Shown: positions 35,323 to 62,408, counted from the first letter of the stretch. The stretch is 64,000 nucleotides of DNA from Candidatus Omnitrophota bacterium (GCA_026387335.1 JAPLLX010000001.1:16489-80488); one strand, 5' to 3'. Made by a program: numbers and translations. The notes: generated by a model not told the origin, from the sequence alone.

Positions 35323-36203
35323 AGATAATAAAAGCGCCGGATAAGTTGTTTAAAGATCTTAAAAAGTTTAAAATTTCCGGCAAGTCCATTGGTTTTGTCC
35401 CGACTATGGGCGCTTTACATGCCGGGCATTTAAGTTTAATTGCCCAAGCGCGCAAAGAGAATAAAATCGTGGTTGTAAGCATATTCGTAAACCCCAAGCA
35501 ATTCGGCCCTCAAGAAGACTTAAAGGTTTATCCCCGTCCGCTAAAAAAAGACCTGTTACTCTGTAAAAAAGAAAAAGTTGATTATGTTTTCCTTCCCGGA
35601 GCAAATGCTCTGTACGCCGAGGGTTTTTCCACTTATGTAGATGTTGAGGGTTTAAGCGCAGTGCTTTGTGGAAAGTCCCGCCCGGGACATTTTCGCGGCG
35701 TGGCCACGATAGTAACGAAGTTATTTAACCTTGTCCAACCGGATGTTGCTTATTTCGGGCAGAAAGACGCGCAACAGGCAAGCATCATCAAAAAAATGAC
35801 AAAAGACTTAAACTTTCCGGTTAAAATAAAAATTATGCCTACTCTGCGTGAAAAAGACGGTTTGGCCATGAGTTCAAGGAATGCGTATCTGGGGAAACAG
35901 GAGAGGAAAGATGCCTTGGTGTTATCCCGCGCGTTAAACTTAGCTAAAGTTTTAATCAGGGGAGGGGCTAAGGATACGGTTAGGATTATTAGCCGGATGA
36001 AACAGTTGATCAGCAAGAATAAAAACGCAAAGCTTGATTATATCGCTATTGTTGATTCAGAAAACCTAAAACCTCTTAAAATAATTTCCGGTAATTATTT
36101 GATTGCTTTAGCGCTAAATATTAAAAAGGTGCGTTTAATAGATAATTTTCAGGGACGGTTCTCAACTCAAAGCAAAAGTGTCCCCAATATGGGGACACTT
36201 TAA
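35319..36203 (+). CDS. panC: pantoate--beta-alanine ligase; the last ~17 codons are read from the 78-bp repeat
   Basis: FVPTMGALHAGHLSLI HxGH motif. 294 aa ORF ends inside repeat copy 3. Confidence 0.85.
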   Translation: MKIIKAPDKLFKDLKKFKISGKSIGFVPTMGALHAGHLSLIAQARKENKIVVVSIFVNPKQFGPQEDLKVYPRPLKKDLLLCKKEKVDYVFLPGANALYAEGFSTYVDVEGLSAVLCGKSRPGHFRGVATIVTKLFNLVQPDVAYFGQKDAQQASIIKKMTKDLNFPVKIKIMPTLREKDGLAMSSRNAYLGKQERKDALVLSRALNLAKVLIRGGAKDTVRIISRMKQLISKNKNAKLDYIAIVDSENLKPLKIISGNYLIALALNIKKVRLIDNFQGRFSTQSKSVPNMGTL

Positions 36204-36227
36204 GATTGGCTTGAGAACCGTCCCTAA
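36151..36227 (+). repeat. 78-bp nested-palindrome repeat element, copy 3 (overlaps panC 3' end)
   Basis: AGGGACGGTTCTCAACTCAAAGCAAAAGTGTCCCCAATATGGGGACACTTTAAGATTGGCTTGAGAACCGTCCCTAA. Inner 11-bp stem is perfect here (AAAGTGTCCCC/GGGGACACTTT). Confidence 0.75.
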
Positions 36228-36233
36228 ATAGAT

Positions 36234-37052
36234 ATGGATAAACTAAAAATCGGAATTGTCGGCTGCGGGGCGATAGGAAGTTCCTTGGCTAAGGTAATTG
36301 TTAAGGAGTTTTCTAAAGAAGCCAAGCTTGGCGGGCTTTATGACCTGGATAAGAAGAAGACTAAAGATTTATCTAAAAAATTATCCGGCTCTTCTTTAGC
36401 AATGGATAATCTTAAACAGCTGATTAACAAATCAGAGTTAGTGGTTGAAGCTGCTTCGGCAAAAGTATCCTGGGATATAGCTAAATATGCGTTAGCCAGC
36501 GGTAAAGATATTATGATTATGAGCGTGGGCGGGGTAGCCAACCGTCTTAAGCAGCTGACCGCGTTAGCTAAAAAGAATGGCGGTCGGGTTTATATACCCA
36601 GCGGCGCTCTCTGCGGGATTGACGCTGTAAAAGCTGCCAGCGTGGGGAAGATAAAAAAAGTTACCCTTACTACTACTAAGCACCCGTTATCTTTTAAGGG
36701 AGTCAAGTTTGTCGAGGATAAAAGAATAAAGCTATCCGGGATAAAGAAAGATACGCTCTTATTCTCAGGCACGGCCCGCGAGGCAGTCAAGTTTTTCCCT
36801 CAAAATATCAATGTTGCCGCGGTGTTAGGCCTGGCCGGCGTAGGCGTAAATAATACTTATGTCAGGATCATTGCTTCGCCGAAAGCCACCAAGAATATAC
36901 ATGAAGTAAGGGTAGAAGCTGAAGCCGGAAATATCTCTACTCGCACTGAGAATATTTTACATCCGGATAACCCTAAGACTAGCTTTCTGGCGGTCTTATC
37001 AGCGATTGCAACTTTAAAGCAGATTTTGCAGCCGGTCAAAATTGGAACTTAA
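36234..37052 (+). CDS. nadX: L-aspartate dehydrogenase (NadX family)
   Basis: KIGIVGCGAIGS, PSGALCGIDAV, FPQNINVAAVLG, NIHEV, HPDNPKTSF match NadX blocks known from Thermotoga-type enzymes. Confidence 0.7.
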   Translation: MDKLKIGIVGCGAIGSSLAKVIVKEFSKEAKLGGLYDLDKKKTKDLSKKLSGSSLAMDNLKQLINKSELVVEAASAKVSWDIAKYALASGKDIMIMSVGGVANRLKQLTALAKKNGGRVYIPSGALCGIDAVKAASVGKIKKVTLTTTKHPLSFKGVKFVEDKRIKLSGIKKDTLLFSGTAREAVKFFPQNINVAAVLGLAGVGVNNTYVRIIASPKATKNIHEVRVEAEAGNISTRTENILHPDNPKTSFLAVLSAIATLKQILQPVKIGT

Positions 37053-37103
37053 ATAAATATGTTGGATACATAATTTATAAAAAGAAGGGGGGTGAATCAG
37101 AAA

Positions 37104-37343
37104 ATGGCAGACAAAGTAATGAAAGTAGGAGTAAAGAGGGCGAAAGGTTATCTCTATTATATTGACAAACAGGGTGATGTCTCTTGCGCTAAGATGGCCA
37201 GAGGCTCTAAAAAGGGAGGTAGCCCCAAGAAGGTAGCGAAATGCGGTATCAAAAGAAAAGTAGGCTACCTTTATTTCTTGGATAAGAAGGGTGATGTTTC
37301 CTGCGCCAAGATGAAAAGAGGCGGGAAGAAGAAAAAGAGATAA
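37104..37343 (+). CDS. small (80 aa) highly basic protein made of two tandem ~35-aa repeats (KxGxKRxxGYLYxxDKxGDVSCAKMxRGxKK); function unknown
   Basis: ATG 37104 preceded by GAAGGGGGG RBS. Internal repeat visible at the protein level. Followed by a strong terminator. Confidence 0.45.
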   Translation: MADKVMKVGVKRAKGYLYYIDKQGDVSCAKMARGSKKGGSPKKVAKCGIKRKVGYLYFLDKKGDVSCAKMKRGGKKKKR

Positions 37344-37355
37344 TATGCAGTCAAA

Positions 37356-37412
37356 AAAGAAGCCCCTGTAAGTTATAGTCTTATCTAAACATTTACAGGG
37401 GCTTCTTTTTTT
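37356..37412 (+). terminator. rho-independent terminator (16-bp perfect stem, 21-nt loop, T8 run)
   Basis: aaagaagcccctgtaa / ttacaggggcttcttt, then tttttttg. Confidence 0.6.
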
Positions 37413-37428
37413 GTTATAATCTAATCCT

Positions 37429-38190
37429 ATGTTAGAAGGAAAAAAGATCATAGTGGTAATGCCGGCTTATAATGCCGAACACACCTTAGAGCAGACTTAC
37501 CTGGATATTCCCCGGAGCCTGGTTGATGAAATATTAGTCATCGATGACCATAGCCGGGATAAGACCGTGGAAGTCTGCCGTAAGTTAGGCCTGCAGGTAT
37601 TTGTGCATAAGAAAAATAAGGGCTATGGCGCCAACCAAAAAACTTGTTATAAAGAAGCGTTAAGCAGGGGGGCGGATATAGTAATTATGCTCCATCCTGA
37701 CTACCAATACCCGCCTAAGTTAATCAACGCTATGGCTGCCTTGGTCGGCTCAGGGATGTTTGATATTGTCTTAGGCTCAAGGATTTTAGGCGGTTTTGCC
37801 TTAAAGGGCGGCATGCCCAGGTATAAATATATAGCTAACCGTTTGCTTACTTTTTTCCAGAATATAATCTTAGGCCAGAAACTCTCCGAATATCATACCG
37901 GCTATAGGGCGTTTTCCAAAGAGGTCTTACTTAAACTGCCGTTATTGGAGAATTCGGATGATTTTGTTTTTGATAATCAAATCCTGGCGCAGGCAGTACA
38001 CTTTGGGTTTCGTATAGGCGAAATAACCGCGCCTTCGCGCTATACCCGGGAATCATCGTCTATATCGTTAAAGAGGAGTATCGTCTACGGCTTTAGCGTG
38101 ATTGGGACAACCGGGGCATTTTTAGCGGAAAAGTTAAAACTAGCTAAATTTAAAATATTTAGTCCCCATGGCCACAAAATCGACTTATAA
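37429..38190 (+). CDS. family 2 glycosyltransferase (polyprenyl-phosphate sugar synthase, DPM1/ArnC-like)
   Basis: IIVVMPAYNAE...IDDHSRDKT...DxD-like and QxxRW-region features of GT2. 253 aa. Confidence 0.8.
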   Translation: MLEGKKIIVVMPAYNAEHTLEQTYLDIPRSLVDEILVIDDHSRDKTVEVCRKLGLQVFVHKKNKGYGANQKTCYKEALSRGADIVIMLHPDYQYPPKLINAMAALVGSGMFDIVLGSRILGGFALKGGMPRYKYIANRLLTFFQNIILGQKLSEYHTGYRAFSKEVLLKLPLLENSDDFVFDNQILAQAVHFGFRIGEITAPSRYTRESSSISLKRSIVYGFSVIGTTGAFLAEKLKLAKFKIFSPHGHKIDL

Positions 38191-39367
38191 ATTAATTTTT
38201 TTCTTAGTCCTTGTTTTAGCGGTCACCTGTATTTCGGGGAGCCTGAAAAATGTGCAATTCGCTTCCGGGGCGGATGAGGGGTATTATTTTCAGTATGCCT
38301 CTTATATAGGGCAGAACGGTCTTCAGGGGTTCGCGGGTCTTTTTAAGGAATATACCCAAAATCAGCAGCATTGGCTTTTTCCTAACCCCTTAAGGATAGG
38401 TTTTATTATTTTATCCAGTCTCTGGCTTAAGGCCTTCGGGTACTCCTTTATAAATTTAGCCTACCTTTCTTTATTTTGTTATCTTCTTTTCTTAGGCGTA
38501 TCGTATTATTTCTCCAGGAAATATTTAGGCGAAAATCTAGCTTTGTTATTTGTGATCCTATTGGCCTTTTCTCCGCTTCAAATGGCCATGGCCAGGCGCG
38601 CGCTGATAGAGAGCGCCGTGATTTTATTTTTAAGTCTAGCGGTATGGTTATTCTGGGATTTCCTAAAATCCAGAAGCAGGTTAAAATTCGCGCTTTTTAT
38701 TGCCGCCTATTCCTTAAGCATTTTAATTAAAGAGACCAGCGTATTATTGACTCTTGTTTTTTTATCTTTTCTTATCGTGGATAAACTTGTCTGTAAAAAG
38801 GAATTCAACTTCAAGGAATTCGCCGCCATCTTATTTCTACCGTTTATTTGCGTAGGCTTGGTTTATCTGGTTTTAGGTTGCCTGCCTTATATGCCTAGCG
38901 CTATAAAAATAATCTTAAATTCGCCTCAGGCTAATACCTACGCCCTTCTTTTTGGCTCCGGGCCCTGGTATCGCTACTTAATAGATTATGCGCTGCTTTC
39001 TCCCTGGGTGGTTATTTTAACTATTAGCTTTATCTTTTGTTATTTTGTAAACAAAGAAACCGATGATTTGCCGCTATATTTTATAATTGTCTTCCTGGTT
39101 AATTTTATCTTGTTTGATATTTTCACCAAGAATCTGCGTTACGTGATTATTTTAGATATACCCATGCGTTTATTCTCGGTCCTTATGCTGCAGAAAATCG
39201 CCCGGAGGATTACTTGGCGTTACGCTATCCCGTTAGCCTGTATGTTAGTAATCGGGATCGCGCTATCCGATTATTTTAATTTTCGTCATTTATTTGTCCA
39301 AGTTGGTATCTATGACCCGGTAAGTTTCCTCTTGCTCCAAGCCAAACACATCATTCCGCATAATTAG
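38168..39367 (+). CDS. polytopic membrane GT-C-type glycosyltransferase (PMT_2 / ArnT-like)
   Basis: About 11 TM helices. DE motif (GADEGYY) in first extracytoplasmic loop, as in PMT/ArnT family. Overlaps GT2 gene end. Confidence 0.5.
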   Translation: MATKSTYKLIFFLVLVLAVTCISGSLKNVQFASGADEGYYFQYASYIGQNGLQGFAGLFKEYTQNQQHWLFPNPLRIGFIILSSLWLKAFGYSFINLAYLSLFCYLLFLGVSYYFSRKYLGENLALLFVILLAFSPLQMAMARRALIESAVILFLSLAVWLFWDFLKSRSRLKFALFIAAYSLSILIKETSVLLTLVFLSFLIVDKLVCKKEFNFKEFAAILFLPFICVGLVYLVLGCLPYMPSAIKIILNSPQANTYALLFGSGPWYRYLIDYALLSPWVVILTISFIFCYFVNKETDDLPLYFIIVFLVNFILFDIFTKNLRYVIILDIPMRLFSVLMLQKIARRITWRYAIPLACMLVIGIALSDYFNFRHLFVQVGIYDPVSFLLLQAKHIIPHN

Positions 39368-39371
39368 AAAA

Positions 39372-40793
39372 ATGCACAGAAAATTTATAATTTTATTATT
39401 GCTAGCGGTGCTTTTGATTTATTCCAGCTCCCTGCGTAACGGTTTTGTTTTAGACGACCAGGTTTTAATTGTGGAGAACCCCTTGATTAAATCCGGGGAG
39501 GCTAAAGCAATTTTTAGTTCCAGTATTTACGATTTGCCTAAAACCTACAGGCCCATTCAGCAGCTCAGCTATTCTTTAGATTATAAAATATGGGGGCTTA
39601 ATCCGTTCGGTTTTCATTTAAGCAATATCATCCTGCATATTTTAAACAGCGTTTTAGTTTATTTTATTATTTGTTTAATAGCGACTATTCCCCTGGCCCA
39701 AGCAGCCAGCCTGATGTTCGCGGTCCATCCGGTTAATTCCTCGGTTGTCGCCTATATAGGAGGGAGGGCGGATAGCTTAGCGGCTTTATGCATGCTTTTA
39801 AGTATCCTGTTTTTCAGAAGATTCACCCTGCCAAGTTCTAAAAAGAATTATATTTTAAGTTTATTGTTTGCGTGGCTGGCGCTTTTATGCCGCGAAAGTT
39901 CCCTGATCCTTCCTTTGTTGTTATTCCTAGTTTTATCTATTAACCCTTCGGGCCTTAAGAGGTTTAAATATATTCTTCCTTTTTTGGCGCTGGATTTAGC
40001 GTATATCATTTTAAGGGTAAAAGTATTTGGAGCTCAGGCATTCTGGTTGCCCTTTAGCGGACTGCCCCTGTTCTTTAACGCGCTGAATTTTCTTTATATA
40101 ATCTTAAAATATTTAAATATTTTGATTCTACCGTTAAACCTGCATATGCTCAGGACAACCCCTTTTATAATAAGTTTATTAGATCCTCGAGTTTTATTTA
40201 CTTTTCTGATCCTTACTTTACTTGGTTTCTTTTTGTTTAAGGAAAGGAAAAATAAGCTAGTCCTTTTTGGGGCGGCTTGGTTTTTTTGCGGGCTTATCCC
40301 TGTTTTCTTTCTTTTATCCGCTTACCCCTGGCTTAAAGCGGCGCTGCTAGCGGAAAGCTGGTTGTATTTACCCTGCGTAGGGGTATTTCTTCTGGTCGCG
40401 CTTATCATGAAAAAGTTATCCCGCGTAGGAAAGTTTTTGTTTATAATAGTTGTTATTATATTTTCATTATTGACTTATCAGGCCAACGACTATTGGAAAG
40501 ATAATCTCAGCGTTTACCGGAATATATTGAAGTATCTGCCCCAAGAGAATCCCGTGCGCAAAAATTTAATCCGGGAATATTTACGCCTCGGGATGTATGC
40601 TGAAGCAGCGACGGAATTAAAAAAATTCAGCCAAAGCTATCCGGAAAGCAGCGAGCGTTTTGTATTAGAGGGTGATTATTATTTTGCCAAGGGGGAACTG
40701 GCGCAAGCCCGGAATAGTTATACCGAGGCTTTGCTAATTAACAAATATGACCCCCAAGCCCTGGAGAAATTAAGAATATTACAAGAGCGATAA
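39372..40793 (+). CDS. TMTC-like membrane glycosyltransferase (DUF1736 domain) with C-terminal TPR repeats
   Basis: N-terminal FVLDDQVLIVENP...YRPIQQLSYSLDYKIWGLNPFGFHLSNIILH is the hallmark DUF1736/PMT-like block. TPR repeats in the last ~100 aa. Confidence 0.6.
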   Translation: MHRKFIILLLLAVLLIYSSSLRNGFVLDDQVLIVENPLIKSGEAKAIFSSSIYDLPKTYRPIQQLSYSLDYKIWGLNPFGFHLSNIILHILNSVLVYFIICLIATIPLAQAASLMFAVHPVNSSVVAYIGGRADSLAALCMLLSILFFRRFTLPSSKKNYILSLLFAWLALLCRESSLILPLLLFLVLSINPSGLKRFKYILPFLALDLAYIILRVKVFGAQAFWLPFSGLPLFFNALNFLYIILKYLNILILPLNLHMLRTTPFIISLLDPRVLFTFLILTLLGFFLFKERKNKLVLFGAAWFFCGLIPVFFLLSAYPWLKAALLAESWLYLPCVGVFLLVALIMKKLSRVGKFLFIIVVIIFSLLTYQANDYWKDNLSVYRNILKYLPQENPVRKNLIREYLRLGMYAEAATELKKFSQSYPESSERFVLEGDYYFAKGELAQARNSYTEALLINKYDPQALEKLRILQER

Positions 40794-40795
40794 AA

Positions 40796-43582
40796 ATGCA
40801 GAATGAATTTATGATTATCCGCGGAGCCAAAGAGCACAACCTTAAGAATATAAGCCTTAAGCTTCCCCGCAATAAACTTATAGTGGTCACCGGTTTATCC
40901 GGTTCAGGCAAATCCAGCCTCGCCTTTGATACTATTTACGCCGAGGGCCAGCGCAGGTTTATGGAGAGCCTTTCCAGTTATGCCCGCCAGTTCCTGGAGC
41001 AACTGCAGAAACCGGATGTAGAATATATATCCGGGCTTTCTCCTTCGATCGCTATTGAGCAGAGAAAAGCGGGAAGCAACCCCCGTTCTACTGTGGCCAC
41101 CCAGACAGAGATCTACGATTATTTCCGGCTTTTGTTTGCCCGCGTCGGTAAAATATTTTGTTATCGCTGCGGCGCTCAGATAGAAAGGCAAAGCGCGCAG
41201 GAGATTGTTGAAAGAATAATGGCGCTTCCCCAAGGCACGGATATTCAGATACTGGCGCCCTTGGTCCGGGGTAGAAAAGGGGAGTATAAAGATATATTTA
41301 GCGGGATTCAAAAGTCCGGGTTTGCGCGGGTGCGCCTGGATGGCAAAATTTATGAGTTGCCCCTTAAGGTTGAATTAGCCAAATATAAAACCCATAATAT
41401 AGAAGTTGTGGTGGACAGGCTGACCATTAAAGACGGGCTGAAAAACCGGCTTACCGATTCAGTGGAAACAGCGCTAAAGGCTGGTAAGGGCATTGTGATT
41501 ATAAGCGCTAAGGAAGATATGGTTTTTAGCGAGCAATACGCCTGTTCAAAATGCGGGGTAAATTACGCGGAGGTAGAGCCGCGCGTTTTTTCTTTTAATT
41601 CGCCTTATGGGGCCTGCGCTGAGTGTAATGGCCTGGGGACCAAGATTAAATTTAATCTGGATTTGGTTATTCCCGATAAAAGTAAATCCATCAACGCGGG
41701 AGCCATTGCTCCCTGGAAAAGAGGAGGCCGGGGCTACATCCTTTATTACCGTTGGCTCATCCGGGAATTAGCCGCCAAGCGGCGTTTTAATCTGGATACC
41801 CCGTTCAATAAATTATCTAAAGAAAATCAGCAGGCGATACTTTATGGCTCAGAGGAATTTATAGGTAATAAGCCATTTGAGGGAGTGATCCCGCATCTGG
41901 AAAGGTTATTCCGCGAATCAGATAGCGATTATCTGAAAGAAGAGATTTCCAAATTTATGTCTAGTTCAGCCTGTCCTTTGTGTAAAGGAGCCCGGCTTAA
42001 GAAAGAGAGCCTGGCGGTTAGGATTAGCGGCAGGAACATCTGGGAGATTAGTTCGATGTCCATTAAAGAAGCGCGTAATTTCTTTACCGGCCTTAAACTA
42101 AACGCTAAGGAAAAGCTGATCGCCCGGCAGGTTTTAAAAGAGATAACCCAAAAGCTGAAATTCTGTATTGATGTCGGGTTAGACTATTTGACCTTGGATA
42201 GAAAAAGCGCCACCCTTTCCGGGGGCGAGGCACAGAGGATCCGCCTGGCTACTCAGGTTGGCTCAGGCCTAGTCGGCGTATTATATATATTGGATGAGCC
42301 CAGCATTGGTTTACACCAGCGGGATAACGCTAAGTTGCTGGCTACCCTTAAATCATTAAGGGATTTAGGCAATACCCTGCTGGTAGTCGAGCATGACGAG
42401 GCGACTATACTCAACGCGGATTATATTGTGGATTTGGGCCCCGGGGCAGGCAGGCATGGCGGAGAGGTAGTTTTCTCGGGGACAAAAGAGGAGCTCTTAA
42501 AGGATGAGCGTTCTTTGACCGCTAAATATCTAAGGCGGGAATTGAAAATAGATTTACCCAAGGCCAGGAGAAGCTGGCAGAGCAGAAAAGTTTTGGAGAT
42601 AAAAGGGGCAGCTGAACATAATCTTAAAAATATCAATGTTAAATTCCCTTTAGGCACTTTTATCGGAGTCACCGGTGTATCGGGTTCAGGAAAATCTACA
42701 CTTATTGATGAAACATTGTACCGCGCGCTGACGCAAAAGCTTTACCAGTCCAAAGAAAAGCCCGGGCTTTTTAAAAAAATTACAGGAGCGGAGTTTATTG
42801 ACAAGGTTATTGTGGTGGACCAGTCGCCAATCGGCAGGACCCCCCGCTCAAACCCGGCTACCTACACGGGTGTTTTTAGCCATATACGGGATATATTCGC
42901 GCGTCTTCCGGAGTCGCGCGTCCGGGGATTTAAACCCGGAAGATTTTCTTTTAATGTTAAGGGAGGCCGCTGCGAGGCTTGTAGGGGTGACGGGATAAAG
43001 AAGATCGAGATGCATTTTCTTCCTGATGTCTATGTGAAATGCGATATTTGTAAAGGTTTAAGGTTTAATGAGGCGACTTTAGCCGTGAAATATAAAGGTA
43101 AATCTATCGCCCAGGTTTTGGAGATGACTATAGAAGAAGCCCGGGAATTATTCAGTAATATTCCAAAAATAAAGAATACGCTGGCTTATCTATTTGATGT
43201 CGGGTTAGGCTATATTCAGCTTGGGCAATCCGCGACCACCTTATCCGGCGGAGAGGCGCAGAGGATTAAGCTTTCCAGCGAATTAAGCCGGCGCTCAACC
43301 GGAAACACGCTTTATATGCTGGATGAACCGACTACGGGTCTGCATTTTGCCGATGTAGATAAACTAATCAACGTATTGCAAAGGTTGGTAGATAAGGGCA
43401 ATACCGTGATTGTAATCGAGCATAATTTAGAGGTGATCAAGAGTGTTGATTATATTATTGATCTGGGCCCGGAAGGCGGAGACAAGGGAGGCCAGCTTTT
43501 GGCAGCCACCAGCCCCGATGAGCTTATTAAGAACCAAAGATCCTACACGGCGCAATCCTTAAGAAAGGTGTTGCTAGATTGA
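40796..43582 (+). CDS. uvrA: excinuclease ABC subunit A
   Basis: Two ABC ATPase modules (GLSGSGKSSLAF, GVSGSGKSTL), LSGGEAQR signatures, zinc-finger Cys clusters. 928 aa. Confidence 0.95.
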   Translation: MQNEFMIIRGAKEHNLKNISLKLPRNKLIVVTGLSGSGKSSLAFDTIYAEGQRRFMESLSSYARQFLEQLQKPDVEYISGLSPSIAIEQRKAGSNPRSTVATQTEIYDYFRLLFARVGKIFCYRCGAQIERQSAQEIVERIMALPQGTDIQILAPLVRGRKGEYKDIFSGIQKSGFARVRLDGKIYELPLKVELAKYKTHNIEVVVDRLTIKDGLKNRLTDSVETALKAGKGIVIISAKEDMVFSEQYACSKCGVNYAEVEPRVFSFNSPYGACAECNGLGTKIKFNLDLVIPDKSKSINAGAIAPWKRGGRGYILYYRWLIRELAAKRRFNLDTPFNKLSKENQQAILYGSEEFIGNKPFEGVIPHLERLFRESDSDYLKEEISKFMSSSACPLCKGARLKKESLAVRISGRNIWEISSMSIKEARNFFTGLKLNAKEKLIARQVLKEITQKLKFCIDVGLDYLTLDRKSATLSGGEAQRIRLATQVGSGLVGVLYILDEPSIGLHQRDNAKLLATLKSLRDLGNTLLVVEHDEATILNADYIVDLGPGAGRHGGEVVFSGTKEELLKDERSLTAKYLRRELKIDLPKARRSWQSRKVLEIKGAAEHNLKNINVKFPLGTFIGVTGVSGSGKSTLIDETLYRALTQKLYQSKEKPGLFKKITGAEFIDKVIVVDQSPIGRTPRSNPATYTGVFSHIRDIFARLPESRVRGFKPGRFSFNVKGGRCEACRGDGIKKIEMHFLPDVYVKCDICKGLRFNEATLAVKYKGKSIAQVLEMTIEEARELFSNIPKIKNTLAYLFDVGLGYIQLGQSATTLSGGEAQRIKLSSELSRRSTGNTLYMLDEPTTGLHFADVDKLINVLQRLVDKGNTVIVIEHNLEVIKSVDYIIDLGPEGGDKGGQLLAATSPDELIKNQRSYTAQSLRKVLLD

Positions 43583-46065
43583 AGATGAGAATGACTCGGA
43601 TAATTTTAGTCTTTCTGTTGGCCTGGGCTCCTTTAACCCAGGTGTTTCCTGACGATATTTCGTCAGCTGCCTCTAAGCCTAAAGAAGAAGAGACGCTTTT
43701 TATGGCTAAAAAGGCCCTGGAAGATGGTTTTTATGAGGTCAGCCTCGGACTTTTAGAGCGCTTTCTGAATAATTACCCGGATTCTCCTTCGGTTATAGAA
43801 GCAAATTTATTAGTTGGCGAATGCTACTTTCATCAGAATAAGTTTATGGATGCCCTGCTCAAGTTTGAGATGCTTTTAAAAGACTCCCGTTCAAAAAATA
43901 TCAGAGACGCTCTCTATTATTGGATTGCCGAAGTCAATTTTAAAGGTAATAATTTTAATCAGGCTATTCTGAATTATAAGAAGATTATCCGGGAGTTTCC
44001 GGCGTCTTCCTATGTGCCTGTTGCTTATTATTCTTTGGGTTGGTGTTTATTCCAGGAACAGAAATTTAAAAGCGCGTTGGAATATTTTAGGGCTTTAGCA
44101 GAAAAATACCCTAAGGAGCCTCAGAGCAAGGACGCCTTGTTTAAGATTATAGAGTGCCTGTACAGCTTAAAGGATTACACCGGTTTAAAAAATAGGATAA
44201 GCCCCTCTATAGCGGCTTTAGCAAAAGACCCCCTGCGCCTGGCCTACCTTTATTTCTATTTAGGCGAAGCCAACTATTATCTGGGTAACTTTGAAGAAGC
44301 GCTCGCCGCGTATGCTAAAGTTTTAGGGCTTAATCCGGATGAAAAAATGCAGGCTTTATGCAAACTGGATTTAGCCTGGAGCTACCTGAAATTAAAACGC
44401 TATAAAGAGGCTGAAGATGTTTTCTGGAGTTTAAAGCAGGAGGATTTGGAGAAGCGCAGCCGGGATATTCTATTGTTAGGTAAAGCCCTGCTTTTTATGG
44501 AGACTAACCGGATAAATGAGGCTATAAAATTATACGAAGAATTATTAGCGCTAACTAATGACCCTTTAATTTCCGCTCAGGGTAGTATCGGCAGGGCGGA
44601 TGCCCTCTATAATTTGGCGGATTACTCGCTTGCTTCCGGGGCCTATAAAGACGCGTTAGCCAAAATAAATCTTAAAGATATGCCTGCTCAAGCGGTTGAC
44701 AAATTGCGTTATAACTTAGGATGGTCTTTATTCAAACAGGGAGATACTAAAGGGGCGATTAAAGAATTTCAAAAGGTGGTTGATTCGAGCGCCGATACTA
44801 CGCTTAAATTGAGCGCTCTTTGTCAGATAGGAGACGCCTATCAGGAAGGCGCGGATTTTAAGGGATCCGAAGAAGCGTATAGTTTATTATTAAAGGAATA
44901 CCCGGGTTCTGCTTATAGCGATTACGCCCTCTATCAACTAGGGGCGGTATTTTTAAAAGATTCCCAAACCGATCAAGCTATTTTAAACCTTGCTAATTTA
45001 GTAAAGAGTTTTCCTGAGTCGCAATTTTTTGATGATGCTGTCTATACCCTGGGGTTGGCTTATTTTAACGCGCAGGATTATAATTCCGCTAAAAATACCC
45101 TCAAAAAATTCTTGCTTGAACTAAAGGATAGCGGTTTAAAACCCAAGGCGCTTTATCTATTGGGTAATTGCTATTATAATTTAGGGGATTATTCTTCGGC
45201 AATACAAACTTTTAAGGAGGTTACTAAGCTTTCCGGATCACAGGTACAGCTATCCCAGAAAGCCGAATATGGGGTTGCGGATTCTCTTTATCAGGCGGGG
45301 GAAGAAAAAGAGGCCTTGGCTAGGTTTAAGGCCCTGCGTTCAAAATATCCGGATTCTGCTTTCACTCCCGAGATCATTTGGTGGCTGGGCAGTTTTTATT
45401 ATCAACACGCTGAGCCGGATCTGGCAGCCAGGTATTTTTCCTCGCTTATCCGGGATTTTTCCGGTAGTTATCTGTTAGCGGATGCCTATTACGCGCTGGG
45501 TTTGGTTTTCGCCGAGGAGTCCAAGAATAAAGAGGCTTTGGAGAGTTTTCAGAAAGCCCTGGATTTAAATAAACCGGAGATTTTGCCTAAAGCCTCTTTA
45601 GCCATAGCGGACATATATACGCTTGAAGGTAAATTTGATTTAGCCTTGGATTTATATAAAGATGTGGCTAGGAATTATCCCAATTTAAGCGACTCTATTT
45701 CTTTAAAAATAGCGGAAGGTTTAGCCAAAAAAGGCGATTACAATGCTGCCTTGGATTACTACCGTAATGGCTTAAAAGGCGTAGCTCTAAAAGACGCCCA
45801 AAAATTGCATTTTAAAGTGGCTGAGATCCAGGAGGAGAGGGGTAATATTGATGACGCGATAAAAGAATATCTTGAGGCGGTTAATTCTGCCCAGCAGGAT
45901 AATGTTTTAACGGCGGAAGCGTTTTTTAGATTAGGACAGATTTATGAAGATAGGGATAACTCTCCAGAGGCCCTGAGCATATATAAAAAGATATTGCAGA
46001 TGAATATAGCGGAATCCGGGAGCGCGCAGGAAAGGATAAATCGGATTGAAGCAGCGGCAAAATAA
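43579..46065 (+). CDS. secreted tetratricopeptide-repeat protein (YbgF/Tol-Pal-like TPR arrays)
   Basis: Signal peptide, then repeated TPR-like motifs (YxLGxxYY.., A...Y) throughout 828 aa. Confidence 0.7.
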   Translation: MKMRMTRIILVFLLAWAPLTQVFPDDISSAASKPKEEETLFMAKKALEDGFYEVSLGLLERFLNNYPDSPSVIEANLLVGECYFHQNKFMDALLKFEMLLKDSRSKNIRDALYYWIAEVNFKGNNFNQAILNYKKIIREFPASSYVPVAYYSLGWCLFQEQKFKSALEYFRALAEKYPKEPQSKDALFKIIECLYSLKDYTGLKNRISPSIAALAKDPLRLAYLYFYLGEANYYLGNFEEALAAYAKVLGLNPDEKMQALCKLDLAWSYLKLKRYKEAEDVFWSLKQEDLEKRSRDILLLGKALLFMETNRINEAIKLYEELLALTNDPLISAQGSIGRADALYNLADYSLASGAYKDALAKINLKDMPAQAVDKLRYNLGWSLFKQGDTKGAIKEFQKVVDSSADTTLKLSALCQIGDAYQEGADFKGSEEAYSLLLKEYPGSAYSDYALYQLGAVFLKDSQTDQAILNLANLVKSFPESQFFDDAVYTLGLAYFNAQDYNSAKNTLKKFLLELKDSGLKPKALYLLGNCYYNLGDYSSAIQTFKEVTKLSGSQVQLSQKAEYGVADSLYQAGEEKEALARFKALRSKYPDSAFTPEIIWWLGSFYYQHAEPDLAARYFSSLIRDFSGSYLLADAYYALGLVFAEESKNKEALESFQKALDLNKPEILPKASLAIADIYTLEGKFDLALDLYKDVARNYPNLSDSISLKIAEGLAKKGDYNAALDYYRNGLKGVALKDAQKLHFKVAEIQEERGNIDDAIKEYLEAVNSAQQDNVLTAEAFFRLGQIYEDRDNSPEALSIYKKILQMNIAESGSAQERINRIEAAAK

Positions 46066-46070
46066 AGATG

Positions 46071-46098
46071 TTGACTTAAGCGGCATTTCTTATAAAAT
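46071..46098 (+). promoter_or_regulatory. possible sigma70 promoter TTGACT-N16-TAAAAT
   Basis: TTGACT 46071-46076, TAAAAT 46093-46098, just upstream of the wHTH ORF. Confidence 0.3.
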
Positions 46099-46116
46099 GA
46101 AGGCCTGGAGGAGAAA

Positions 46117-46323
46117 ATGATTACAGAAATCGGTATAGTTGCTGGTGATATATGGCATTTCCTGGATCAGCACGGAGAGGCCACCTTGACTGAATTGGGC
46201 AAGGGAGTAGATAAATCCCGCGACAATCTTCTTATGAGCCTGGGTTGGTTGGCCAGGGAAGGTCACGTAGTTTTGCAACGGGCAGGCAATGACTATAAGA
46301 TATCTTTAAGAAAAGATGCCTAA
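46117..46323 (+). CDS. small winged-helix-like protein (68 aa), hypothetical
   Basis: Size and pattern (TLTELGKGVDKSRDNLLMSLGWLAREGHV) suggest a wHTH fold. Overlaps next ORF start. Confidence 0.35.
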   Translation: MITEIGIVAGDIWHFLDQHGEATLTELGKGVDKSRDNLLMSLGWLAREGHVVLQRAGNDYKISLRKDA

Positions 46324-46723
46324 TCCGGAAGCTAACGAAAGCGGCATAGTCCTAATCATCGTTCTAGCTATAATATTAGTCGTGGTTATCTTGTCCGGCG
46401 CTATGCTCAGGACCATTATCAGCCAGTCCCGTTTGACGCATCATCAGGTAAGCAGGATCAAAGCTTATTATGCCGGTAAAGGCATGATGAATTATGTCCA
46501 GGATATGCTTAGAAAGGGGACCTGGACAGCGGATACCACTAACAAAAAATACGCCTGTCATAGAGATTGCTCTGGTTTAGGCGTTCCCGCGCCCAACTAT
46601 ATAATACCTACTGATAACGATATCCTCTATAATATTCTAGTTACTATTTATCCCCTTAACCAGGCTTTAAGTAATACAGTTACCCAGTTAGATATAAAAA
46701 CAGAATATACCTACACTCCATAA
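46316..46723 (+). CDS. PilX N-terminal-domain-like membrane-anchored protein (putative pilus-associated minor component)
   Basis: ESGIVLIIVLAIILVVVILSGAMLRT resembles the PilX_N hydrophobic segment. No canonical G/FTLIE prepilin site. Confidence 0.35.
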   Translation: MPNPEANESGIVLIIVLAIILVVVILSGAMLRTIISQSRLTHHQVSRIKAYYAGKGMMNYVQDMLRKGTWTADTTNKKYACHRDCSGLGVPAPNYIIPTDNDILYNILVTIYPLNQALSNTVTQLDIKTEYTYTP

Positions 46724-46726
46724 TAA

Positions 46727-46735
46727 CCCCCCCCC
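46727..46735 (+). repeat. homopolymeric C9 tract immediately after the stop codon and ~45 nt upstream of the pilus-operon promoter
   Basis: ccccccccc at 46727-46735. Confidence 0.9.
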
Positions 46736-46779
46736 AAGTAACTTCCGGTAAGTCCATCGTAGTCTAAGTAAGAAAACAC

Positions 46780-46808
46780 TTGACAATGTAAGTCTTTTAT
46801 GTTTTAAT
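46780..46808 (+). promoter_or_regulatory. sigma70-like promoter TTGACA-N17-TTTAAT for the pilus operon
   Basis: Perfect -35 TTGACA 46780-46785. TTTAAT 46803-46808. Confidence 0.45.
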
Positions 46809-46846
46809 TAAATCCATCGTTGTTTATTATAATATAAGAAAGGGCT

Positions 46847-47038
46847 ATGACTAGACTTATAGACATTGATGAATTAGCAGAATATCTTAAGCTCAAGAAG
46901 CAGACTATATATAACTGGTTGAGCCAGGGAAAGATCTCCGGTATTAAGGTGGGAGGAGTCTGGAGGTTTGACCGTAAAGATGTGGATAACTGGCTTCAGA
47001 GCAGTAAGCGCATGTCCAAGACAGGAGTAAACCAATGA
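46847..47038 (+). CDS. excisionase-family (HTH_17/MerR-like) DNA-binding protein, first gene of pilus operon
   Basis: LIDIDELAEYLKLKKQTIYNWLSQGKISGIKVGGVWRFDRKDVDNWL: classic Xis/AlpA-type HTH. Stop overlaps the pilM ATG (ATGA). Confidence 0.6.
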   Translation: MTRLIDIDELAEYLKLKKQTIYNWLSQGKISGIKVGGVWRFDRKDVDNWLQSSKRMSKTGVNQ

Positions 47039-48585
47039 GTGACCTGGGCATATATTTTGGGCCTAAGGCTATAGATGTTTCCGAGGTTAAGGCTAGAAAA
47101 CTGCTAAATTCTATCCAGATACCCCTCTTAGGGATTACCGGCAATGAATTAGATGAGAAAGTCCCTACCGAGATAAAACTGGTAGCTTCTTTTAATGACG
47201 CTTTTAGAAGAAACAAGATTGAAGCCAGGGAAGCAGCGCTTTGTCTTTCCGGAAAAGACCTGATTATCAGGACTTTTGAGATCCCGATATTACCTAAAGA
47301 TGAACAGCAGGGAGCCATAAACTTTGAAGCTAAGAAATACATACCGTTTAAGGTTGAAGAGCTCATCTCAGACTATCAAGTTGAGCTGGATAAGTTAAGC
47401 CGGACCAATATAGTGCTTTTCATGGGTATCAAGAAGGATACCTTTGATAAGTACTTCTCCATACTTAACCAGTTAAATATAAAGATAAGCTCAATAGAAT
47501 ATTCCGGTTTTAGCGTATTAAGAGTATTAAAACTGGCCGGGATCAGAGAAAACGGGGTGATGAGCATCTTGACTTTTGACTCTCAGGCCCAGGATGAAAT
47601 AAATTTCGCGGTTTTGGAAAACGGTTTTCCTTTATTTAGCCGCGATATAAATTTAACCAGCGGGCCTTCTGATCTGGACCAGATAGATGGGTCTTTCGCA
47701 GCGTTATCTATGGATAAATTGAAGGCGGAGATCCGCGTATCGCTGGATTATTACCACCGTAAATTTCCCGCTAAGCCCTTAAAAAATATCTTTGTTTTTG
47801 CTAACTCTGATTGGCGTAAAGAACTGGAGGCGTTTATAAATGAGTTAGGCCTGCCCGGTAAGTTCATTGATATCACTAGGATCGCCGGCAAGCCCATGGC
47901 CTTTTCTTCGGGGTTTGTAAAGAGCTATAGCGTAGCTATTGCTAAGAGCGTAGCTACTAAAATAAGGCTGGATTTAATTGAAAGTAAGACAAGGGTGGAT
48001 AAGCCGTCGGCTGCGGTAGGGCTGGCCCTGGCTGGTTTATTCAAAAAGATAAAAATAGATTTTCGTTTTCTGCTTATGGGGGTATTCATTTGCATCGCTG
48101 CCTTTGCTTACGGAGTTTCCCGGGAGGCGCCCTTAAAACAGGATCTGAATAAAATAATAAGCCAAAGGATAAAAGTCAGCGATATTCACTCCGATACTAG
48201 CTTCGAAATGTTAAATACAATCAGTCTAAAAGACAGGAAGACCTTGGAGAGTTTAGATAATCTTATCCGCAAGCAGTTGTATGTTACGGAAGTCCTGGAT
48301 ATTATCCCCCGCTTTATGCCGGATGGCATATGGCTCTCCAAATTTGCTTTAAATAAGAACGCAGGAGAGGGGCTGGAACTTACATTAGAAGGAATGAGCT
48401 ATTTAGGGGATAGTAACGATGAATTCCAGGCGGTAAATAAATTCTTCAACGTTTTAAAAGAGAATACGGTGTTTGCCAAATATTTTAAAGATATAAGCTT
48501 GGTATCCATAGATCGCGCCCAGTTTTCCGGCGCCACTGTAACTAAATTTTTGATGTCTTGCAAGACCTATAAAGAGAGAAAATAA
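47035..48585 (+). CDS. pilM: type IV pilus assembly protein PilM fused to PilN
   Basis: N-terminal ~340 aa actin-like PilM-type domain. Single TM (FRFLLMGVFICIAAFAYGV). C-terminal PilN-like periplasmic region (GIWLSKF...LELTLEGMS). Confidence 0.6.
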   Translation: MSDLGIYFGPKAIDVSEVKARKLLNSIQIPLLGITGNELDEKVPTEIKLVASFNDAFRRNKIEAREAALCLSGKDLIIRTFEIPILPKDEQQGAINFEAKKYIPFKVEELISDYQVELDKLSRTNIVLFMGIKKDTFDKYFSILNQLNIKISSIEYSGFSVLRVLKLAGIRENGVMSILTFDSQAQDEINFAVLENGFPLFSRDINLTSGPSDLDQIDGSFAALSMDKLKAEIRVSLDYYHRKFPAKPLKNIFVFANSDWRKELEAFINELGLPGKFIDITRIAGKPMAFSSGFVKSYSVAIAKSVATKIRLDLIESKTRVDKPSAAVGLALAGLFKKIKIDFRFLLMGVFICIAAFAYGVSREAPLKQDLNKIISQRIKVSDIHSDTSFEMLNTISLKDRKTLESLDNLIRKQLYVTEVLDIIPRFMPDGIWLSKFALNKNAGEGLELTLEGMSYLGDSNDEFQAVNKFFNVLKENTVFAKYFKDISLVSIDRAQFSGATVTKFLMSCKTYKERK

Positions 48586-49105: not shown

Positions 49106-49635
49106 AAAAGATGAATAAAATTCCTGGGTCAATTTTTATTTTATGCGCATTATTGATAGCAGGATTATTTTGTTCGGAATCTTTAGGCTCTATGCAATGG
49201 GATTATGATGCTTCCAAAGGGCCTGATGCAGGCTCGGCCAAGAATGTAGCGGTTAAGGATAGCGCTCTCCAGCAGGAGGCGGTCATCCGGCCTAAAGTTG
49301 AGTATAGGGCGCAGGGGTTAAAGGATCCTTTCCAGCCGCTGGTTATCGAAGAAGAGGCTGTCAACTCTGTAGTGGCCAGCCCGGTTAAAATAAAACAGTT
49401 GCCTGCTTTGACTATTCAGGGTTTAATCTGGGGAGGAGATTTTCCTCAGGCGATTATAAATAATAAAGTAGTAAAGATAGGAGACCAAATCGCAGACGCA
49501 GAAGTAGTAGCAATAGATAAAGAAGGGGTCATCTTGCTTTATGCCAACAAAAAATATAAATTGTCCTCTCCGGCCCTGATGGGCCCGCGGAAAGAAAAGC
49601 AAACAGAAGGAGGAAATAATGAGAAGTCAAATTAA
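49102..49635 (+). CDS. pilP: type IV pilus assembly lipoprotein PilP-like
   Basis: Signal/lipoprotein N-terminus. Conserved LKDPFQP motif characteristic of PilP. Position directly before secretin. Confidence 0.6.
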   Translation: MKKMNKIPGSIFILCALLIAGLFCSESLGSMQWDYDASKGPDAGSAKNVAVKDSALQQEAVIRPKVEYRAQGLKDPFQPLVIEEEAVNSVVASPVKIKQLPALTIQGLIWGGDFPQAIINNKVVKIGDQIADAEVVAIDKEGVILLYANKKYKLSSPALMGPRKEKQTEGGNNEKSN

Positions 49636-51172
49636 GTCAGTTGTTTTTATTTTCATTTTGCTCAGCCTTATTTTTGCCCACAGGGTAAGCGCCTCAGACG
49701 AGGCGTCTATTTTGAACGGTAGAGACTCGACCATCTCTATGGATTTACAGGATACGCCCCTAAAGAGCGTGCTGAAGCTTCTATCCATACAGTCGGGCTT
49801 AAATTTTATTGCTTCCGAGGGTCTCCAGGACAGGAGTATAACTTTGTATTTGGATAAGGTACCCTTGAAGGAGGCAATGGATAAGATATTCAAGGCGAAT
49901 AATCTCTCGTATGATTTAGACAAAGAGTCCAATATTTTCATTGTCAATGATTGGGGGAAGCCGACAACCCAGACCATAACTAAAGTTTTTTACTTAAAAC
50001 ATGCTACGGTTTCTTCTTCTTCATTGATGGAAGAGCTGAAAAACAATAAAGAAAACAATGCTACCAGTACTTCCAGCTATTCAACCAGTTCATCCAGTAG
50101 TTCTTCTTCAAGTACCACCGATAACGGCAAATGGAAAGTCGAAGAAGACGCGGGGATCACTCAGGTAGTAAAGAAGCTTTTATCAAAAGATGGTTCAGTA
50201 ATTGAGGATTTTCGCACCAACAGCCTTACGGTTACCGATACTCCTGGAAGGATTGAAGTTATCTCTCAGGTAATCGCCTCGTTGGATATTTCAATTCCGG
50301 AAGTCATGCTGGAAGTAGAGATGCTGGATGTAAGCAAAAATGTTGTGGATAAGTTAGGTTTTAAATTCGGCCAGACTCCCTTCTCAGTCGCCTTCACCGG
50401 CAGTACCGCGGCTGCCGGTTTTCCGTATCAGAGCTGGACAAAGATAATCGGAGGCGAAAGCTCTCTGGATGTAAACAACGCTAATACCGCCGGCGGCGCG
50501 TATAAAATACAGTTAGATTTTCTGCGCACACAGACAGACACCAAGTTTTTAGCTCGCCCCAGGATCATGACTCTGAATAACGAGACTGCCGAAATCAAGA
50601 TTACTTCTAATGAAACTATAGGTATAACCAGCATACAGCAGGGGCAGGGATCTGCGGCGTCCACTACTACCGAGGCGGAAAGGGCGGAGACAGGAGTAAG
50701 CTTAAGGGTTACTCCTCAAGTTGATGTGGAAGCCGGAGAAATTACGATGTTTATTATTCCTACGGTAAAAGATACCGCAGTCAGCTCCATTCCTATCGGC
50801 GGCACAGGCAGCAATTTTTATAAGGATCCGGAAGAGCGGACGACTAAGTCCACGGTGCGGGTTAAAGACGGAGAAACTGTTGTCCTGGGGGGCCTGATCC
50901 GCAACCAGAATACGACTATTGTTACCAAGCTGCCTATTTTAGGGGATATACCTTTATTGGGAATGCTCTTTAGGCATAAAGAACAGTCTCCGGGCAGAGA
51001 GCGCGAACTCTTGGTTTTTATAACCCCGCACATTATGAAAAACGTTAAGTCCGAGCCGACTCCGGTTAAGAAAAAAACAGTTCTCCCGTTAAGAGAACAG
51101 GCTAAATTTGTTCCTCTTACCCGGCAGCAGAACATTAGCGCCTATTTGAATAATTTTGATGCTAAGCGCTAA
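49619..51172 (+). CDS. pilQ: type IV pilus secretin PilQ
   Basis: Signal peptide. Secretin C-terminal domain (VVLGGLIRNQNTTIVTKLPILGDIPLLGMLFRHKEQSPGRERELLVFITPHI). Ser-rich low-complexity linker. Confidence 0.85.
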   Translation: MRSQIKSVVFIFILLSLIFAHRVSASDEASILNGRDSTISMDLQDTPLKSVLKLLSIQSGLNFIASEGLQDRSITLYLDKVPLKEAMDKIFKANNLSYDLDKESNIFIVNDWGKPTTQTITKVFYLKHATVSSSSLMEELKNNKENNATSTSSYSTSSSSSSSSSTTDNGKWKVEEDAGITQVVKKLLSKDGSVIEDFRTNSLTVTDTPGRIEVISQVIASLDISIPEVMLEVEMLDVSKNVVDKLGFKFGQTPFSVAFTGSTAAAGFPYQSWTKIIGGESSLDVNNANTAGGAYKIQLDFLRTQTDTKFLARPRIMTLNNETAEIKITSNETIGITSIQQGQGSAASTTTEAERAETGVSLRVTPQVDVEAGEITMFIIPTVKDTAVSSIPIGGTGSNFYKDPEERTTKSTVRVKDGETVVLGGLIRNQNTTIVTKLPILGDIPLLGMLFRHKEQSPGRERELLVFITPHIMKNVKSEPTPVKKKTVLPLREQAKFVPLTRQQNISAYLNNFDAKR

Positions 51173-61967: not shown

Positions 61968-62348
61968 ATGAATAGAAAAGGTTTTACATTAGTTGAAATC
62001 ATGATCGTAGTAGCCATCATCGCGTTATTAGCCGCTATCGCTATACCTAACTTGTTGAGCGCCAGGATTACCGCGAATACCGCGGCAGCCAAGGCGAATG
62101 TGCGTAGTCTGTCAACAGCGGCAGAAACATATTCAACCGCGAATAACGGCGGATATCCGGGTACTGTAACCGCGCTGGCAACTTTTATCGGCGCAGCAGA
62201 CAGCTATTGTAACAAAACAACTCAAGGCTACACCTATACCTGCACCTTAGCTACAACCGGTTATACTATTTCCGCGGCGCCACTTTCAACGCAAACCGGC
62301 ACCACGACTTACACTGCTACTACCGGAGGAGTGCTTACGCCATTATAA
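61968..62348 (+). CDS. pilA: type IV major pilin (PilA-like), canonical G|FTLVE prepilin signal, Thr-rich C-terminal region
   Basis: MNRKG|FTLVEIMIVVAIIALLAAIAIPNLL. ATG 61968 preferred over TTG 61959, with RBS GGGGGA 9 nt upstream. Monocistronic between a strong promoter and terminator. Confidence 0.85.
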   Translation: MNRKGFTLVEIMIVVAIIALLAAIAIPNLLSARITANTAAAKANVRSLSTAAETYSTANNGGYPGTVTALATFIGAADSYCNKTTQGYTYTCTLATTGYTISAAPLSTQTGTTTYTATTGGVLTPL

Positions 62349-62375
62349 AAAAGCGCTTCTTATGAAGAGTCAAAA

Positions 62376-62408
62376 AGAGGAGAGGAGAAAATCCTCTCCT
62401 CTTTTTTA
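62376..62408 (+). terminator. rho-independent terminator after pilA
   Basis: agaggagagg / cctctcctct 10-bp stem, 7-nt loop, TTTTTT. Confidence 0.6.

Follow-up and report, generated by a model that had tools for sequence, protein, structure and literature searches.

Glycosyltransferase genes in the window

We have analyzed a 64 kb stretch of DNA (the window) from a metagenome-assembled genome (MAG) of Candidatus Omnitrophota (GCA_026387335.1, JAPLLX010000001.1:16489-80488). It contains three consecutive genes, here called G1, G2 and G3, which code for a glycosyltransferase of family GT2 and two membrane glycosyltransferases of the GT-C type. A paralog of G3, called G3b, is found next to a type IV pilin gene. 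As shown by Pfam scans and a listing of open reading frames (ORFs), the window is compact, nearly all its genes are on one strand and most of its content is of the housekeeping type. It includes genes for fatty acids, leucine, arginine, lysine, folate and pantothenate, as well as uvrA and a type IV pilus cluster. The features discussed below are listed in Table 1. An earlier description of this DNA, to which we refer as the sequence-only reading, presented G1, G2 and G3 as three consecutive, overlapping genes. The three ORFs are indeed consecutive, but the only overlap is found between G1 and G2 (23 nt). G2 and G3 are separated by 4 nt, G3 and uvrA by 2 nt.

Table 1. Coordinates of the features considered in this work, counted from the first nucleotide of the window.
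Feature	Position	Strand	Description
G1	37429-38190	+	GT2 of 253 amino acids, predicted polyprenyl-phosphate sugar synthase (donor maker), without transmembrane segment
G2	38168-39367	+	Minimal GT-C glycosyltransferase of 399 amino acids, transmembrane core only
G3	39372-40793	+	TMTC/TfpW-like GT-C of 473 amino acids, about three TPR-like hairpins at the C-terminus
Pilin gene	61968-62348	+	Type IV pilin (N_methyl, E 1.9e-9), Thr/Ser-rich C-terminal part, candidate acceptor
G3b	62415-64000 (possible start 62409)	+	TMTC/TfpW-like GT-C with TPR, paralog of G3, cut by the end of the window
Intrinsic terminator	37347-37414	+	Hairpin and U-run, RNA fold dG -31.9 kcal/mol, z = -8.1, 0 of 200 shuffles equally stable
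Sigma-70-like promoter match	37392-37420	+	TTTACA-17-TATAAT with TG, 11 of 12 matches, consensus match only
Intrinsic terminator	62372-62408	+	15-bp stem, dG -28.5 kcal/mol, z = -5.1, between the pilin gene and G3b
Small basic ORF	37104-37343	+	79 amino acids
Large TPR protein	43579-46065	+	828 amino acids
PilM-PilN fusion	47035-48585	+	516 amino acids
Secretin	49619-51172	+	PilQ-like
Radical SAM gene and Memo-AMMECR1 fusion	56606-59168	+	Fusion of 492 amino acids
Polytopic membrane protein	19760-21286	+	508 amino acids

The G1 protein matches PF00535 in Pfam (E 2.5e-23). It has a GT-A catalytic domain with the acidic nucleotide/metal-binding motifs: D39, D40 and D91 are invariant. D91 lies within 'HPDYQYPP', which is aligned with 'DADLQHPP' (D-x-Q-x-P-P motif) of dolichol phosphate mannose synthase (DPMS). 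Its nearest characterised relatives are lipid-phosphate sugar synthases, not GT2s that are processive or act on soluble acceptors. The top NCBIfam matches, all far under the cutoffs, are AglJ, PpgS and a haloarchaeal dolichyl-phosphate hexose transferase, and there is a weak match to PgfS (E 2.7e-8). The best PDB match is the Pyrococcus DPMS 5mlz (E 5.6e-12, versus about 1e-4 for ArnC). On these grounds G1 is predicted to be a polyprenyl-phosphate sugar synthase, in agreement with the sequence-only reading. Its length is close to that of the PpgS model, which also lacks transmembrane segments (226 positions, the match spans 3-216), and its identity across Omnitrophota is 70-80%. The same reading had considered that G1 might turn out to be an ArnC ortholog in an arn context. 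An identification of G1 and G2 with ArnC and ArnT, the enzymes of lipid A modification, is ruled out by the scores (21.1 bits with the NCBIfam ArnC model, whose cutoff is 529, together with the PDB values given above) and by the context: neither the window nor the neighbourhoods scanned in related loci show arn-type genes (arnA, arnB or arnD). G2 also lacks the periplasmic C-terminal domain of ArnT.

The G2 protein matches PF13231 (PMT_2) over the gathering score (E 3.7e-10). Its structural model is a confident polytopic GT-C fold, formed entirely by transmembrane helices and short loops, with no soluble domain and no beta-trefoil. Among 19 homologues, D36 never varies and at least 90% keep E37. 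This pair is placed after the first transmembrane helix, in the first external loop of the model. R76, R143/R144 and E189, the latter in a 'KET' motif, are also conserved. The description of the second gene as a GT-C membrane transferase with a DE loop motif is therefore confirmed, and the unrelated transporter that had been contemplated in its place is not found. The family is large (about 436 clusters at 50% identity, E<=1e-30). NCBIfam has no match to G2. Searches of solved-structure sequences, made with G2 alone and with a profile, give none either. The NCBI label 'glycosyltransferase family 39 protein' is a generic name: we have rejected G2 as a member of PMT/GT39, as PF02366 gives 20.4 bits (cutoff 22.7) and there is no MIR domain.

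The G3 protein matches PMT_2 (E 3.6e-7) and several tetratricopeptide repeat (TPR) families. In its structural model, which is confident (pLDDT 93.2), about three TPR-like helical hairpins come after the GT-C core, at residues 378-472, where the TPR matches are also found. In 30 homologues D28, D29, R60, P61, P120, D134 and E175 are invariant, while H119 and R132 are nearly so. G3 contains the motif set of TMTC proteins, that is, DD in loop 1, (S)YRP, FAVHP and K/R-E(T/S). The motifs DD, (S)YRP, FAVHP and KE have been defined for human TMTC1-4, and the corresponding stretch of TMTC3 is 'LFAVHPIHT' (PMC7801869). A profile search of the G3 family against solved structures gives matches dominated by TPR proteins. 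The sequence-only reading had called this gene a TMTC-like protein with DUF1736 and TPR. The TPR and the TMTC motifs are present, but DUF1736 (PF08409) is below threshold (16.9 bits, cutoff 27, E 0.006), and the 25 families listed for 30 scanned members of the G3 family do not include it.

A distant homology links the G2 and G3 families over approximately 230 N-terminal residues (hhalign 94.9%, E 4.6e-8), the catalytic half of each protein. In this alignment D36-E37 of G2 sits on D28-D29 of G3, and the KE(T/S) motifs of both families coincide.

The pilin gene and G3b

G3b begins directly 3' of the pilin gene, with an intrinsic terminator between them. It is 31% identical to G3, so the second TMTC-like paralog that had been noticed after the pilin gene is real. 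Its translation shows the DD, YRP and KE motifs, and its C-terminal region matches TPR_1 and TPR_2 (E about 1e-16). The pilin weakly resembles the Myxococcus PilA and GspG models in their N-terminal part, with scores far under the cutoffs. Serine and threonine make up 26% of its residues, and 42% of the last 40.

This arrangement resembles that of TfpW, which is required for pilin O-glycosylation (O-arabinofuranosylation) in group IV Pseudomonas aeruginosa. TfpW is a GT-C protein with 11 predicted transmembrane segments. A DDx motif in periplasmic loop 1 is essential, the C-terminus forms a periplasmic TPR domain, and the gene is found directly 3' of pilA. A Rho-independent terminator between the pilin and the accessory genes is a described hallmark of pilin cassettes (PMC11841053). 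G3b agrees with this description of TfpW in its GT-C plus TPR architecture, in its DD motif, in its position next to the pilin gene and in the intervening terminator. G3 shares the architecture, but it has only about three TPR hairpins and is not adjacent to a pilin gene. There is another difference: no genes for a D-arabinofuranose donor (phosphoribosyl pyrophosphate transferase, DprE1/E2) are found in the window. As the donor synthase is here a GT2, a hexose or an N-acetylhexosamine is the more probable sugar.

A pilin gene directly 5' of a TMTC-like gene is also found in 12 loci of Chthoniobacterales (within L061-L085) and in locus L090. P0171, the best homologue of G3b, is encoded 3' of pilin genes. 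In Chthoniobacterales, the pair formed by the pilin and the TMTC-like gene is 2-5 kb from a G2 homologue and a gene coding for a GT2-methyltransferase. By analogy with TfpW, the acceptor of G3b is likely to be the Thr-rich pilin encoded directly upstream. The suggestion that the pilin tail might be a target is strengthened in the case of G3b, since the two genes have the same order in a second phylum and on a further contig, and their arrangement copies the pilA-terminator-tfpW cassette. On the other hand, no evidence ties G3 to any particular acceptor.

The sequence-only reading had also named the poly-Ser linker of PilQ as a possible target. The PilQ-like secretin does have a Ser/Thr-rich linker, 'SSYSTSSSSSSSSSTT' (residues 131-168, approximately, between STN/N-domains), but nothing ties it to glycosylation.

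A tblastn search of plasmids with the G3b membrane domain gives a single, unannotated haloarchaeal match. In Chthoniobacterales, a protein of about 600-640 amino acids is encoded between the G2 homologue and the pilin-TMTC-like pair (L067 9140-10963, minus strand; L085 5854-7785, plus strand). It has C-terminal TPRs and an N-terminal region which matches no family, and it may be another GT-C plus TPR enzyme.

Gene linkage in other genomes

A scan of species-representative genomes gave 80 loci, whose ORFs were screened with the proteins of the window. Omnitrophota have a conserved block: panC, aspartate dehydrogenase, a small basic ORF, [GT2], G2, [TMTC-like], uvrA and a large TPR protein. GT2 and G2 with the same 23 nt overlap, in the order panC-aspDH-GT2-G2-uvrA, are found in about 14 species-level Omnitrophota loci. 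The overlap is kept in L002, L003 and L088, and both overlap and pairing persist when the identity of G2 falls to 45-63%. The slot which follows the conserved GT2 may contain G2 alone, G3 alone, G2 and G3, or G2 and two copies of G3. In L086 and L087 an ortholog of G3 (53-60% identical) comes directly after the GT2, and G2 is missing. The complete trio is present in L088 and in L007, the latter with two TMTC-like genes.

The sequence-only reading had envisaged a linear pathway of three genes. This is not what the relatives show: as GT2 is combined with G2, with G3 or with both, G2 and G3 behave as alternative or additive partners. G1 would then be one conserved synthase whose donor serves interchangeable GT-C enzymes, a pattern known from gtr clusters.

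Linkage is also found in other phyla. A MAG of Geobacteraceae (L052) has the order GT2 fused to a GtrA transmembrane domain, TMTC-like, G2-like and an ortholog of G1 (58% identical). In Verrucomicrobiota, Kiritimatiellae and Acidobacteriota, the G2 homologue adjoins a G1-like GT2 fused to an S-adenosylmethionine (SAM)-dependent methyltransferase. Among 84 genes that neighbour 21 distant G2 homologues, pooled for one Pfam scan, GT2 is the commonest family. Only GT2, TPR and methyltransferase families recurred, together with GT9 (twice), and no acceptor signal was detected among these neighbours. It is these recurrences across phyla that carry most weight as evidence of linkage.

Some of these loci have features of their own. 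The fused GT2 of L052 (5073-6116, plus strand), the second GT2 of that locus, carries a GtrA/DPMS transmembrane domain and may be the membrane-anchored or flippase-like part which is missing from the window. The GT2-methyltransferase fusions have 500-540 amino acids (L085 9104-10732, minus strand; L036 9167-10666, plus strand; L046 6125-7681, minus strand) and may point to a donor whose sugar or lipid is methylated. Omnitrophota have several copies of both GT-C families: in L021 (1-5173) a TMTC-like gene and uvrA come after three G2 paralogs in tandem, and L091 (1-7792) has four consecutive TMTC-like/TPR genes.

The transcription signals of the window suggest that G1 begins its own transcription unit, since a terminator and a promoter-like site are found directly upstream. 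The terminator closes the preceding unit (aspartate dehydrogenase and the small basic ORF), just 5' of G1. The promoter-like site is the top-scoring one of the region scanned (36000-47200). It ends 8 nt before the start codon of G1, so the mRNA would be nearly leaderless. The unit may read on into uvrA.

Similarity to known systems

In three-component systems, a variable GT-C works outside with the polyprenyl-phosphate sugar that a synthase produces on the cytoplasmic face (PMC11127046). GtrA/GtrB/Gtr*, Citrobacter ORF12-15 and the mycobacterial PpgS/Rv3779 and Ppm1/Pmt are of this kind. In the loci described here, a conserved synthase is combined with interchangeable GT-Cs in one slot. There are several differences: in the window there is no adjacent flippase gene (GtrA/SMR/MATE), the genes are not in an O-antigen locus, and two unlike GT-Cs are found side by side. 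G1 differs from GtrB and ArnC in lacking a transmembrane anchor, its length being that of PpgS. The sequence-only reading had made the comparison with Ppm1/Pmt. Its logic, a GT2 which makes the lipid-phosphate sugar and a GT-C which transfers it outside, fits the homology and the conserved linkage, but G2 is not a member of Pmt/GT39 and no specificity for mannose is implied.

The streptococcal systems Pgf and GtrB/PgtC2 also use one GT-A synthase of undecaprenyl-phosphate sugar and one or more GT-Cs to O-glycosylate extracytoplasmic Ser/Thr-rich segments (PMC12041528). Their GT-Cs belong to the YfhO family, not to PMT_2 or TMTC-like families, and their host is Gram-positive.

The eukaryotic TMTC1-4 proteins, which are O-mannosyltransferases of cadherins in the endoplasmic reticulum, have in common with G3 the GT-C domain, a non-cytoplasmic TPR domain, the motifs described above and the predicted donor class, a polyprenyl-phosphate monosaccharide. 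In G3 the DUF1736 match is below threshold, the TPR region is much shorter and the host is a bacterium. Mannose and cadherin-type acceptors are not implied by the comparison.

Proposed function and alternatives

We consider it fairly probable that these genes form a glycosylation module of the Gtr, Ppm1-Pmt or Pgf type acting on the periplasmic face, with G2 and G3 as separate consumers of one donor. This proposal combines the observed folds, motifs and conserved linkage with predicted enzyme activities, membrane sidedness and acceptors. At the inner face of the cytoplasmic membrane, G1 would load polyprenyl phosphate with a single sugar, taken from a nucleotide sugar, and some flippase would bring the lipid-linked sugar to the outer face. 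The GT-C enzymes would use it there, each by means of the acidic pair placed in its first external loop. G2 and G3 would be two different consumers of the G1 donor, not successive steps. Guided by their periplasmic TPR domains, G3 and G3b would transfer the sugar to Ser/Thr residues of envelope proteins, and the acceptor of G3b would be the adjacent Thr-rich pilin, as with pilA-tfpW in Pseudomonas. G2 would transfer the sugar to a membrane-embedded acceptor or extend a glycan. Protein O-glycosylation, in particular of pilin, by the TPR-bearing enzymes G3 and G3b is plausible. As G2 has no MIR, TPR or other acceptor-binding domain, its acceptor is more likely to be membrane-embedded or lipid-linked (a glycolipid, lipopolysaccharide (LPS) or a lipid-linked glycan), unless it extends a glycan.

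Several points weigh against this proposal. Every curated synthase model scores G1 far under its cutoff, so orthology with any of them is not supported. No hydrophobic segment of the transmembrane type is found in G1, which lacks the C-terminal transmembrane helices of a membrane anchor; a peripheral or partner-mediated association with the membrane would be required. No flippase of the GtrA/SMR/MATE type is found among the window proteins scanned. A clade of Omnitrophota has G2 with no adjacent G1 (L009-L011, L020, L025, L056 and L057). TMTC-like genes are abundant: there are two in the 64 kb window and four in tandem in L091, and in L092 they are found amid housekeeping genes. Some adjacencies could then be due to chance or simple shared descent, and adjacency within Omnitrophota alone is weakly significant. 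The verrucomicrobial pilins which adjoin TMTC-like genes are not Ser/Thr-rich (13%). Finally, uvrA and the large TPR protein gene are spaced as tightly as the trio; spacing alone is no proof of an operon, and we have set it aside as evidence.

The same data could be read in a broader way. TMTC/TfpW-like enzymes, together with the G1 family without transmembrane helices and the G2 family, might constitute a conserved, undescribed system of protein O-glycosylation in Omnitrophota, other members of the PVC group and Geobacter-like bacteria. Each TPR paralog would select different envelope proteins, pilins being one class, and the system would be a prokaryotic counterpart of the eukaryotic TMTC pathway. 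This extension is tentative and we regard it as rather doubtful. Within it, glycosylation could possibly be a shield in phage or prey interactions of ultra-small bacteria, and the bacterial system could possibly be the source of the eukaryotic TMTC pathway.

Another explanation, which we consider unlikely, concerns the nature of the G2 acceptor. G1 and G2 could be a pair which modifies envelope lipids or polysaccharides, following the logic of ArnC/ArnT, RgtE/RgtA-D, LgmA/LgmB or GtrB/Gtr*, with lipid A, the LPS core or a lipid-linked glycan as target; G3 would be unrelated and merely part of the same gene string. In L004 the G2 homologue closes a polysaccharide cluster with Wzy_C, Bac_transf, GT1 and epimerase genes, similar to an O-antigen cluster, and two distant G2 homologues have GT9 heptosyltransferase-like neighbours. 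Together with the lack of an acceptor domain, these cases keep an LPS or glycolipid target open for G2. One clade also has G2 without an adjacent G3 or G1. Nevertheless, the low ArnC score of G1, the lack of NCBIfam matches for G2 and a scan of window proteins in which neither arnA/B/D nor lpx nor O-antigen genes appear argue against such a pair, while the loci with GT2 followed by G3 without G2 (L086 and L087) and the reordered trio of L052 argue that G3 shares the GT2.

A further explanation, already proposed in the sequence-only reading, is that both G2 and G3 are protein O-glycosyltransferases; it appears quite improbable. They would belong to one pathway or complex, such as a heterodimer of the Pmt1-Pmt2 kind or a priming and an extending enzyme, and would act on pilins and other Ser/Thr-rich envelope proteins. 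The two families are homologous and their genes are adjacent in four independent contexts (the window, L007, L088 and L052). There is a precedent in streptococcal PgfS, which with PgfM1 and PgfM2 glycosylates Ser/Thr-rich regions (PMC12041528), and the proximity of the G2 homologue to the pilin-TMTC-like pair in Chthoniobacterales points in the same direction. On the other hand, G2 has no domain to bind a protein acceptor, G2 and G3 are each found beside GT2 without the other, and the structural matches do not separate acceptor classes.

A mere juxtaposition of three independent glycosyltransferase genes in a streamlined, co-directional and tightly packed genome is very improbable: the neighbouring housekeeping genes are indeed equally close and on the same strand, and with roughly one TMTC-like gene per 30 kb a 6 kb block would hold one fairly often, but the overlap and pairing of G1 and G2 have been kept as G2 diverged, GT2 is the commonest neighbour in other phyla, the trio has been re-created in a different order in L052, and the terminator and promoter-like site isolate the 5' end of the unit.

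The joint action of GT2 and GT-C enzymes through a lipid-linked sugar is a textbook mechanism. The module with separate GT-C consumers that we favour is a familiar scheme built from uncharacterised families, and a specialist would find it plausible rather than surprising. To our knowledge, there has been no experimental work on how the cell surface of Omnitrophota is glycosylated, and a literature search turned up no paper linking this phylum to pilus glycosylation. The most concrete prediction is the TfpW-like cassette formed by the pilin gene and G3b. If the proposal is correct, it would provide a defined set of donor synthase and transferases for an uncultured phylum and a bacterial system to study enzymes of the TMTC type, for which catalysis in animals is so far a matter of inference. 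It would also mean that TfpW-like pilin glycosylation reaches well beyond Proteobacteria. The G2 family, without matches in NCBIfam or among solved structures, is a clean target for function discovery.

Other features of the window

An Rfam scan of the window gives one tRNA and nothing else. The small basic ORF between aspartate dehydrogenase and G1, followed by the strong terminator described above, codes for a very basic protein which consists of two internal repeats (…GYLY[YF][IL]DK.GDVSCAKM.RG.KK…). It has no match in Pfam and no sequence match in PDB, and its homologues hold the same position in 26 Omnitrophota loci. The large TPR protein, made up entirely of YbgF/BamD-like repeats, is encoded by a gene that overlaps the uvrA stop codon by 4 nt and is kept 3' of uvrA throughout the Omnitrophota loci. 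The polytopic protein encoded between truA and rplM has no match in Pfam or NCBIfam. We have considered it as an additional GT-C and rejected it, as it is unrelated to the G2 family (hhalign probability 1.5%). The PilM-PilN fusion of the pilus cluster is also kept in L002 and L088. Finally, the radical SAM gene followed by the Memo-AMMECR1 fusion corresponds to the known AmmeMemoRadiSam gene association, two parts of which are fused here.

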